DNA from: Enterococcus phage CUB-FS
Sequence record: PV646497.1
DNA: 64,000 nt
Direction: 5' to 3' (one strand)
The notes under the pieces are model-generated. The model searched no databases. It worked only from the letters and a program-made list of their open reading frames with translations, and was not told the origin of the DNA. The position numbers were made by a program, and so were the translations under genes. Positions 38,616 to 38,914 of the stretch are shown in pieces (position 1 is the stretch's first letter; the number at the start of each line of letters is the position of its first letter).

Positions 38616-38914
38616 TTGTAATAAAGCTCCGTTAGATAGTAATATCTAAAAGAAACCTATCTTTATCATGGGAAACCTCTAGGAGGCAATCATGAGTGAA
38701 GCTGTAGAAATACAGAACATGCAACGACTATCGAAAGGGGAGTTCTTGTCGAGAGGACATGAATGAGAACCGAGTAGAGTACACCCAAGTGGGTGGAAAT
38801 GGTAGGGCTCCTAGAGTAACGACTAGGAGTAAGATATAGTCTGTACTACATGGTGACATGTAGCAGTTCATAAGAGAACGCTATAAGCTTAACGAACTTA
38901 TAGGAACATAATAG
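38616..38914 (+). ncRNA. Group I self-splicing intron (299 nt, no ORF) in the recA-like gene
   Basis: The exon ends ...GGGU and the intron ends in G (38914). Joining gives QQPG|IKAKAMAQFAQII..LFIAINQ, colinear with RecA GLAARMMSQAMRKL..LLIFINQ. The core CGACTATCGAAAG..TGTCGAGAGGACA..GAGTAGAGTACACC..GTGGAAATGGTAGGGCTCCTAGAGTAACGACTAGGAG is near-identical to the pol intron. Confidence 0.6.

Follow-up and report, generated by a model that had tools for sequence, protein, structure and literature searches.

[quoted passage not shown]

Results

The recombinase gene is interrupted by 299 nt

The window analysed here, a 64-kb stretch of DNA from Enterococcus phage CUB-FS (64,000 nt; PV646497.1), contains on its plus strand two adjacent open reading frames (ORFs), 38082..38621 (179 aa) and 38930..39628 (232 aa), which the original prediction took to be the two halves of a RecA-family protein. 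This is confirmed by the Pfam RecA profile (PF00154), of which the first ORF covers positions 34-158 and the second positions 169-261, whereas the joined product matches positions 34-261 of the 262 in one piece, with a score of 122 bits and with the Walker A/B and L1/L2 regions taken in without interruption. Both exons of the gene are on the plus strand. Exon 1 (38082..38615) comprises codons 1-178, including the Walker A motif GKNSSGKS and the Walker B region, ends in GGT, and is collinear with ORF064 of phage phiEF24C. Exon 2 (38915..39628) starts with ATT AAG GCA and comprises codons 179-415 plus the stop codon. Conceptual ligation of T38615 to A38915 yields a protein of 415 aa that reads ...GNQQPG/IKAKAMAQF at the junction (slash) and that aligns without a gap across it to Escherichia coli RecA (...GDSHMG/LAARMMSQ), so that the proposed residue-for-residue alignment of this segment with RecA is borne out; E. 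coli RecA structures also match the joined product in a PDB alignment (E 2e-28), again gap-free at the junction. The insertion site lies where the region of the DNA-binding loop L1 of RecA reaches its C-terminal end.

Terminator-like hairpins flank the recombinase gene at ~38015-38036 and ~39637-39651, and no terminator-like sites were found within 38616-38914. The 1.7-kb region around the insert shares 97-99% identity with members of the phiEF24C group of Enterococcus phages (genus Kochikohdavirus, Brockvirinae, Herelleviridae), for example vB_Efa29212_3e, phiEF17H, phiEF7H and ECP3. In the GenBank records the recombinase is given as two CDSs ("putative recombinase A / UvsX-like") and the intron is unannotated, and some of the records add spurious small ORFs within it.

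Intron-less alleles fix the boundaries of the insert

The boundaries of the insert are fixed, and not merely inferred, because alleles without it could be compared. In the uninterrupted allele of phiEF24C, ...CAACAGCCCGGA is directly followed by ATTAAGGCA, and in the window allele ...CAACAACCGGGT is followed by 38616 to 38914 and then by ATTAAGGCA; the insert is thus 38616-38914 exactly, and 299 nt long. The intron-less site itself reads CAGCCCGGA followed by ATTAAGG in phiEF24C. These boundaries agree with the splice points originally proposed, after GGU (38615) and after G38914. The uninterrupted gene is found in phiEF24C, EFLK1, A155 and ~18 more records, in which the query is matched over 1402 nt versus 1701 nt, the difference being 299 nt. 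With a 100-nt junction probe, the insert was absent from 21 records, present in a 299-301-nt form in 14, and present in a 1091-nt form in three (ECP3 twice, and Carl). The intron is therefore polymorphic, with 21 records lacking it and 17 carrying it, among genomes that are 97-99% identical.

The spliced CDS differs from ORF064 of phiEF24C at 25 of 1248 nt, all of them synonymous, and the two proteins are 100% identical. Synonymous differences at -3 and -1 relative to the insertion site are fixed between the two allele classes: CCG GGT precedes the site in every intron-bearing allele and CCC GGA in every intron-less allele, the latter having an A at the position of U38615. The CCG GGT form places a U at -1 and makes the end of the exon complementary to the guide, as the P1 helix requires, and this U, the P1 complementarity and the terminal G of the intron are retained in all intron-bearing alleles. 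It should be noted that co-conversion during homing would leave just such CCG GGT / CCC GGA differences.

The insert matches the group I intron model and can be folded into the corresponding structure

The Rfam scan for group I introns that had been suggested as a check placed the insert above threshold: Intron_gpI (RF00028) matches 38607-38863 with 72.8 bits (gathering score 50; E 1.4e-16) over positions 1-253 of the 253 of the model, and no other Rfam family matches the insert at E <= 1. The homologous inserts of phages Revolver, Riverwalk and KEN04 score 67-75 bits with the same model. Together with the intron-less alleles and the structure, this identifies 38616..38914 (plus strand) as a group I intron of 299 nt, of subgroup IA with P7.1/P7.2 and devoid of an endonuclease gene.

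The secondary structure from P1 to P9.2 was drawn by hand, and each pair was checked. P1 (38611-38617 with 38624-38631) pairs the last five exon bases and the first two intron bases with the internal guide and leaves U38628 bulged. Within it, guide positions 38626-38631 pair with exon positions 38611-38615 with one bulge, and the wobble pair U38615.G38626 marks the 5' splice site. P1 requires a bulge or a mismatch, and P1 with this wobble pair is supported by the hand model, the Rfam alignment and the minimum-energy fold. The exon-1 frame meets two stop codons, TAA TAA (38620..38625), two codons into the intron, and the first ORF ends at 38621. P2 (38633-38 with 38643-48) is closed by a GUAA loop and is followed by P3 (38656-61 with 38801-06), P4 (38666-71 with 38690-95) and a very short P5 (38676-78 with 38684-86), which has 3-4 bp around a 5-nt loop. 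P6 (38702-06 with 38711-15) is a 5-bp hairpin with a GAAA loop that stands in place of the endonuclease loop, and P7 (38726-31 with 38836-41) is pseudoknotted with P3. P7.1 (38742-50 with 38756-64), P7.2 (38782-86 with 38791-95) and P8 (38808-14 with 38823-29) all show compensatory changes. P9 (38846-52 with 38857-63) has a GUGA loop, and it contains in KEN04 the compensatory changes C38849U and G38860A; P9.1 (38866-69 with 38876-79) is followed by P9.2 (38881-87 with 38897-903), for which KEN04 has the compensatory changes U38884C and A38900G. The terminal G, 38914, is the last nucleotide of the intron, as fixed by the intron-less allele. P10 comprises 3-4 bp only, in an ambiguous register.

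This structure is supported in several ways. The unconstrained minimum-energy fold (z = -4.4 versus shuffles) recovers every modelled helix except the pseudoknotted P7. Among four close variants of the intron, pairing over the 14 helices (80 pairs) is kept at 99.1%, with six double changes located in P7.1, P9 and P9.2, versus 31-46% in slid controls. P1-P4, P6 and P7 are invariant in these variants, so that their pairs are uninformative in this comparison, and P3, P4, P6 and P7 rest on pairing and on the Rfam model. For the 3' core (38723..38842; P7, P7.1, P7.2, the 3' strand of P3, and P8), which is the segment common to the polymerase intron described below, an alignment that takes in seven introns, located in four different host genes, shows 97.9% pairing and changes on both sides of 10 of the 27 pairs (in P7.1, P7.2 and P8), a result reached by none of 500 shuffles. 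In the Michel-Westhof classification, subgroup IA is recognised by two extra helices, P7.1 and P7.2, that separate the 5' strand of P7 from the 3' strand of P3. By the modelled P7.1/P7.2, a stretch that the Rfam model aligns as an insertion, we assign the intron to subgroup IA (IA2-like, of the Twort/SPO1/T4 type).

The endonuclease gene present in other alleles is missing from the window intron

The statement in the original prediction that the 299 nt contain no ORF has to be qualified slightly: a residual ORF of 24 codons is present at 38692..38766 on the plus strand. Its start, ATGAGTGAAGCT, is the start of a 279-aa HNH endonuclease ORF in the ECP3 intron. The 24-aa peptide of 38692-38766 has no Pfam match, and the intron encodes no homing endonuclease. 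In ECP3 and Carl, the 279-aa ORF, which matches Pfam HNH_3 and NUMOD4, is located in the P6 loop. The ribozyme parts of the 1091-nt ECP3 intron are identical to those of the window intron, except that P5 is longer, and the endonuclease ORF is closed by a perfect 10-bp P6 stem formed by CUAAACUAAC with GUUAGUUUAG. The window intron keeps the Shine-Dalgarno sequence and the first four codons of the ECP3-type ORF (ATGAGTGAAGCT at 38692), followed by the 5-bp P6 hairpin at 38702-38715.

A different arrangement was observed in Riverwalk, which has the 299-nt intron and, further down the recombinase gene, a second insertion of ~1041 nt (L003 ~1545-2585; corresponding to ~39044 of the window, after ...GGVDSPG). 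This second insertion contains a 221-aa ORF with a weak I-HmuI_NUMOD-like match, followed by a group I 3' core (39.5 bits, E 5e-8, with covariance model R1, see below). The recA gene of this genus thus has at least two intron sites.

The recombinase and polymerase introns share their 3' core

A second group I intron, of 440 nt, is located in the family A DNA polymerase gene of the window (34873..35312, plus strand). Its exon 1 ends with T34872 of GGT, its terminal G is 35312, and its exon 2 starts with GAAAGT; the gene without intron reads GGTGAAAGT in phiEF24C (junction GGT/GAAAGT). The Rfam model Intron_gpI did not match 34873-35312 in either gathering or E-value mode, which is likely explained by a 130-nt insertion in P6 together with the P7.1/P7.2 insertion. 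This intron was identified by its intron-less allele and by our own covariance model, R1, built from the 121-nt 3' core. R1 scores 145 bits with the core of the recA intron and 134 bits with 35154-35273 in the polymerase intron, and pattern, repeat, BLAST and covariance-model searches revealed no further copies of the 3' core in the 64-kb window.

The original prediction held that the catalytic cores of the two introns are near-identical, and aligning them had been suggested. The similarity is real, but this wording is too strong. Positions 38723-38842 and 35154-35273 agree in 104 of the 123 columns of their pairwise alignment (85%; 82% in the multiple alignment), with identity rising to 89% in a block of 37 nt and to 92% in one of 51 nt, whereas no counterpart of the 5' 107 nt of the insert was found in the polymerase intron, and the P1-P6 halves of the two introns are unrelated in sequence and length. 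The 3' segment of the recA intron is equally similar to introns in the nrdE genes of the Bacillus phages BSP12 and phiAGATE (82.8% over 155 nt), with a bit score of 141 versus 121 for the polymerase intron, and the recA intron is 74-76% identical to intron 3 of Twort orf142 from P2 to P9.

Exchange between the two introns is visible in KEN04, in which a tract of 64 nt, from the 5' strand of P7 through P7.1, is identical in its own recA intron (L005 1024-1087) and its own polymerase intron (L013); the equivalent tracts of the two introns of the window differ by about a dozen positions and a 2-nt indel. The KEN04 recA intron is a natural chimera and points to gene conversion between co-resident introns. 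It would be a natural counterpart of the laboratory shuffling between T4 introns that was reportedly obtained by Bryk and Belfort in 1990.

In the KEN04 record, small reverse-strand "hypothetical proteins" are annotated in both introns (L005 980-1087 and 1149-1250; L013 539-637, 840-929 and 950-1048), and these are probably annotation artefacts.

At a greater distance, a 32-nt stretch of the P7.2 region (38767-38798) is identical in Aeromonas salmonicida phage Aes512, and in Aes516 a match of 73.5% over 98 nt is located in a split DNA polymerase gene. Contamination was rejected as the origin of these "Aeromonas" matches. They arise from short stretches in the polymerase introns of Aeromonas phages that resemble the conserved P7.2 region, and they show how widely this intron core lineage extends.

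Elsewhere in the window, we observed a family of repeats of 57-78 nt on the plus strand (32431-32487, 56473-56550, 57895-57972 and 59100-59177), one copy of which lies directly 5' of the polymerase gene. The repeats contain TATTGACAAATAACA and, after ~17 nt, TAAACT or TATACT followed by a ribosome-binding site, and they look like strong phage promoters with leaders.

Discussion

Proposed splicing of the recombinase intron

[quoted passage not shown] According to this proposal, a single RNA containing exon 1, the intron and exon 2 would be transcribed. Ribosomes translating exon 1 would halt at UAA UAA, two codons into the intron, leaving the ribozyme free to fold; in-frame stops just after the 5' splice site are common in bacterial and phage introns and are thought to aid folding (PMC3984707). 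P1 would form between the last exon bases and the internal guide, with U38615.G38626 as the wobble pair, and a free guanosine bound in P7 would attack after U38615, the 3'-OH of which would then attack after the terminal G38914. In this way GGU would be joined to AUU, restoring the 415-aa recombinase that is the same as in the intron-less phages.

The insert might instead be a decayed intron that no longer splices, in which case two polypeptides of 179 and 232 aa would be made in place of one recombinase, whether or not they can assemble, or the gene would in effect be a pseudogene. The absence of an endonuclease gene and the minimal P5 could be read in this way, as could the two separate CDSs of the GenBank annotation, and the in-frame ATG at 38930 in exon 2 could in principle start a separate C-terminal polypeptide. 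However, this ATG and its surroundings are ordinary exon sequence that is present in intron-less phages too, all core helices are intact, and the changes between variants are compensatory and not disruptive. In addition, the conservation of the U at -1, the P1 complementarity and the terminal G in every intron-bearing allele speaks against decay, and the 25 synonymous and zero non-synonymous differences from the intron-less allele, spread over both exons, imply that the whole protein is under purifying selection. We therefore regard decay as improbable. That the insert belongs to another kind of intervening element altogether (an intein, a group II intron, a translational bypass element or a small insertion sequence) is more improbable still, to the point that we hardly consider it, as nothing favours it beyond the fact that the gene is interrupted, and the end-to-end match to the group I model, with no other Rfam family at E <= 1, argues against it. 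The insert cannot be an intein because no frame of the exon strand runs through it without a stop, and the group II intron and insertion sequence readings were rejected in view of the Intron_gpI match and the absence of terminal repeats and of a transposase.

The origin of the shared core has to be considered separately. The original prediction saw in it the duplication or spread of one intron lineage within the genome, and the recA intron could accordingly be a duplicate of the polymerase intron, the shared 120 nt being the remnant of a recent copy event. The level of identity, above all in the 51-nt block, and the tract exchange between the recA and polymerase introns of KEN04 are compatible with such an event. 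Yet the P1-P6 halves are unrelated, the 3' half matches the nrdE introns of Bacillus phages at least as well, over more nucleotides and with a higher bit score, and the recA intron is homologous over its full length to Twort orf142 intron 3. All this opposes a copy event, and the similarity corresponds to the general level for the sublineage plus local gene conversion. A copy event within this genome is therefore unlikely, and "near-identical" and "duplication in this genome" are both too strong, given that the shared segment is limited to 82-85% and that the nrdE and Twort introns are similar as well. What stands of the claim is a shared sublineage and, in KEN04, an exchange between its members. 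As the nrdE introns are as close and the Twort intron is homologous, the recA and polymerase introns are better regarded as members of one widespread Herelleviridae sublineage than as a private pair of duplicates. We give an even chance to the view that the shared P7-P8 core is a homology patch through which co-resident introns, and possibly also introns of co-infecting phages, repeatedly convert each other, of which the 64-nt tract of KEN04 would be a natural instance. If so, intron cores would evolve as a concerted genome-wide pool, and the polymorphisms of intron presence at the recA site and of the endonuclease would reflect ongoing competition between co-infecting Kochikohdaviruses.

Mobility and the gain and loss of the intron

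The window intron appears to have lost, or never to have gained, its homing endonuclease gene, and since this gene is missing it would not be mobile on its own. Mixed infections could still allow it to spread, through ordinary recombination or aided by an ECP3-type HNH endonuclease. The series of alleles would fit the well-known cycle in which introns are gained, lose their endonuclease and are lost themselves, and the same gain/loss pattern has been described for the Bacillus cereus group (PMC2504315). Genomes that are >97% identical thus provide a natural series consisting of no intron, the 299-nt intron, the 1091-nt intron with an HNH gene, and the second site of Riverwalk. Combined with the natural chimera of co-resident introns, this series would lend itself well to work on the cycle by which introns and endonucleases are gained and lost.

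Comparison with known introns

Group I introns are frequent invaders of Herelleviridae genes (PMC7409376). The intron of the window shares with intron 3 of Twort orf142, another Herelleviridae phage intron with an Intron_gpI match, the set of helices, including P7.1/P7.2, and the sequences of P7 and P8. It differs from it in its host gene, since orf142 is not a recombinase gene, and in the inner hairpin of P7.1, which differs with compensatory changes. Moreover, splicing of the Twort intron was shown by experiment (Landthaler & Shub 1999, cited in PMC5618024), whereas splicing of the window intron is predicted; the crystal structure available is that of the sister intron I2 of Twort (Golden et al. 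2005, cited in PMC3984707).

The claim that introns in recA-type genes are far less commonly described than polymerase introns can be kept in a weaker form. They are described less often, but documented examples exist in staphylococcal phages, in bacteria of the B. cereus group and in phage 0305phi8-36. In Twort-like phages of staphylococci, the RecA-like gene, rec, contains a group I intron that encodes I-MsaII, and peptides from both halves of the protein have been detected by LC-MS/MS (PMC5618024). As in the window, this is a group I intron in a RecA-like recombinase gene of Herelleviridae, but it splits the gene near the position of residue 69 of the window protein (in Walker A, as located by tblastn) instead of after residue 178, and it carries an endonuclease gene, which the window copy does not. 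The recA introns of the B. cereus group, including Bacillus anthracis, and of the Bacillus thuringiensis phage 0305phi8-36 (Ko et al. 2002; PMC2504315; PMC3984707) are likewise group I introns that mostly lack an endonuclease gene, with one endonuclease-bearing relative, and here, too, the intron is absent from alleles without a U at the site. Unlike the window intron, they have mixed IA1/IA3 features (PMC2504315) and not a Twort-like core with P7.1/P7.2.

The polymerase introns of SPO1, SP82 and Bastille belong to the same 3' core sublineage, and they encode the nicking HNH endonucleases I-HmuI and I-BasI (as cited within PMC3984707). Polymerase introns differ from the recA intron in their host gene and in their unrelated 5' half. 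The nrdE introns of BSP12 and phiAGATE (Bastillevirinae) are 81-83% identical to the recA intron over the whole P6-P9 segment and have an HNH endonuclease ORF upstream of the core, but they are located in a ribonucleotide reductase gene, and their P8 has compensatory changes and a bulge. Relatives of both introns of the window have ORFs of the I-HmuI type (HNH_3/NUMOD4, I-HmuI_NUMOD-like) in the P6 loop.

Implications for annotation

The recombinase intron is canonical, an ordinary member of a lineage that is common in this phage family, and it leaves the knowledge of how group I introns work unchanged; the endonuclease polymorphism and the KEN04 chimera are of modest evolutionary interest. 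[quoted passage not shown] Recognising the intron restores one gene of 415 aa in the records of Enterococcus phages that are therapeutic candidates, and rids gene counts, core-gene clustering and phylogenies of an artefact. The problem that introns pose for annotation has been flagged for Herelleviridae in general by Barylski et al. (PMC7409376).

A drum RNA in the polymerase intron

The most unusual observation made in the window lies outside the recA intron itself. A drum RNA, one of a class of structured RNAs that is widespread but has no known function (PMC5737381), is present at 35044-35140 on the plus strand within the polymerase intron (34873-35312), where RF02958 matches with 52.8 bits (gathering score 43; E 5e-7). 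It is nested in the extension of the P6 loop, and a predicted stem closes the insertion. Polymerase introns of phiEF17H and of the EFLK1 type have a 220-aa I-HmuI-like ORF where the window has the drum-bearing segment of 159 nt (34995-35153), so that the window intron differs from them in having a drum element in place of an endonuclease gene. A literature search revealed no later functional work on drum RNA, and an intron with drum in place of an endonuclease gene may be undescribed. A drum-like core of 71 nt, 83% identical, was also found in eight Listeria Pecentumvirus records (for LMTA-57, L012 1501-1571), where it is free-standing in a tRNA gene cluster, between tRNA-Tyr and tRNA-Lys. From these locations it follows that the same small RNA exists as a stand-alone gene or as intron cargo in related phages.
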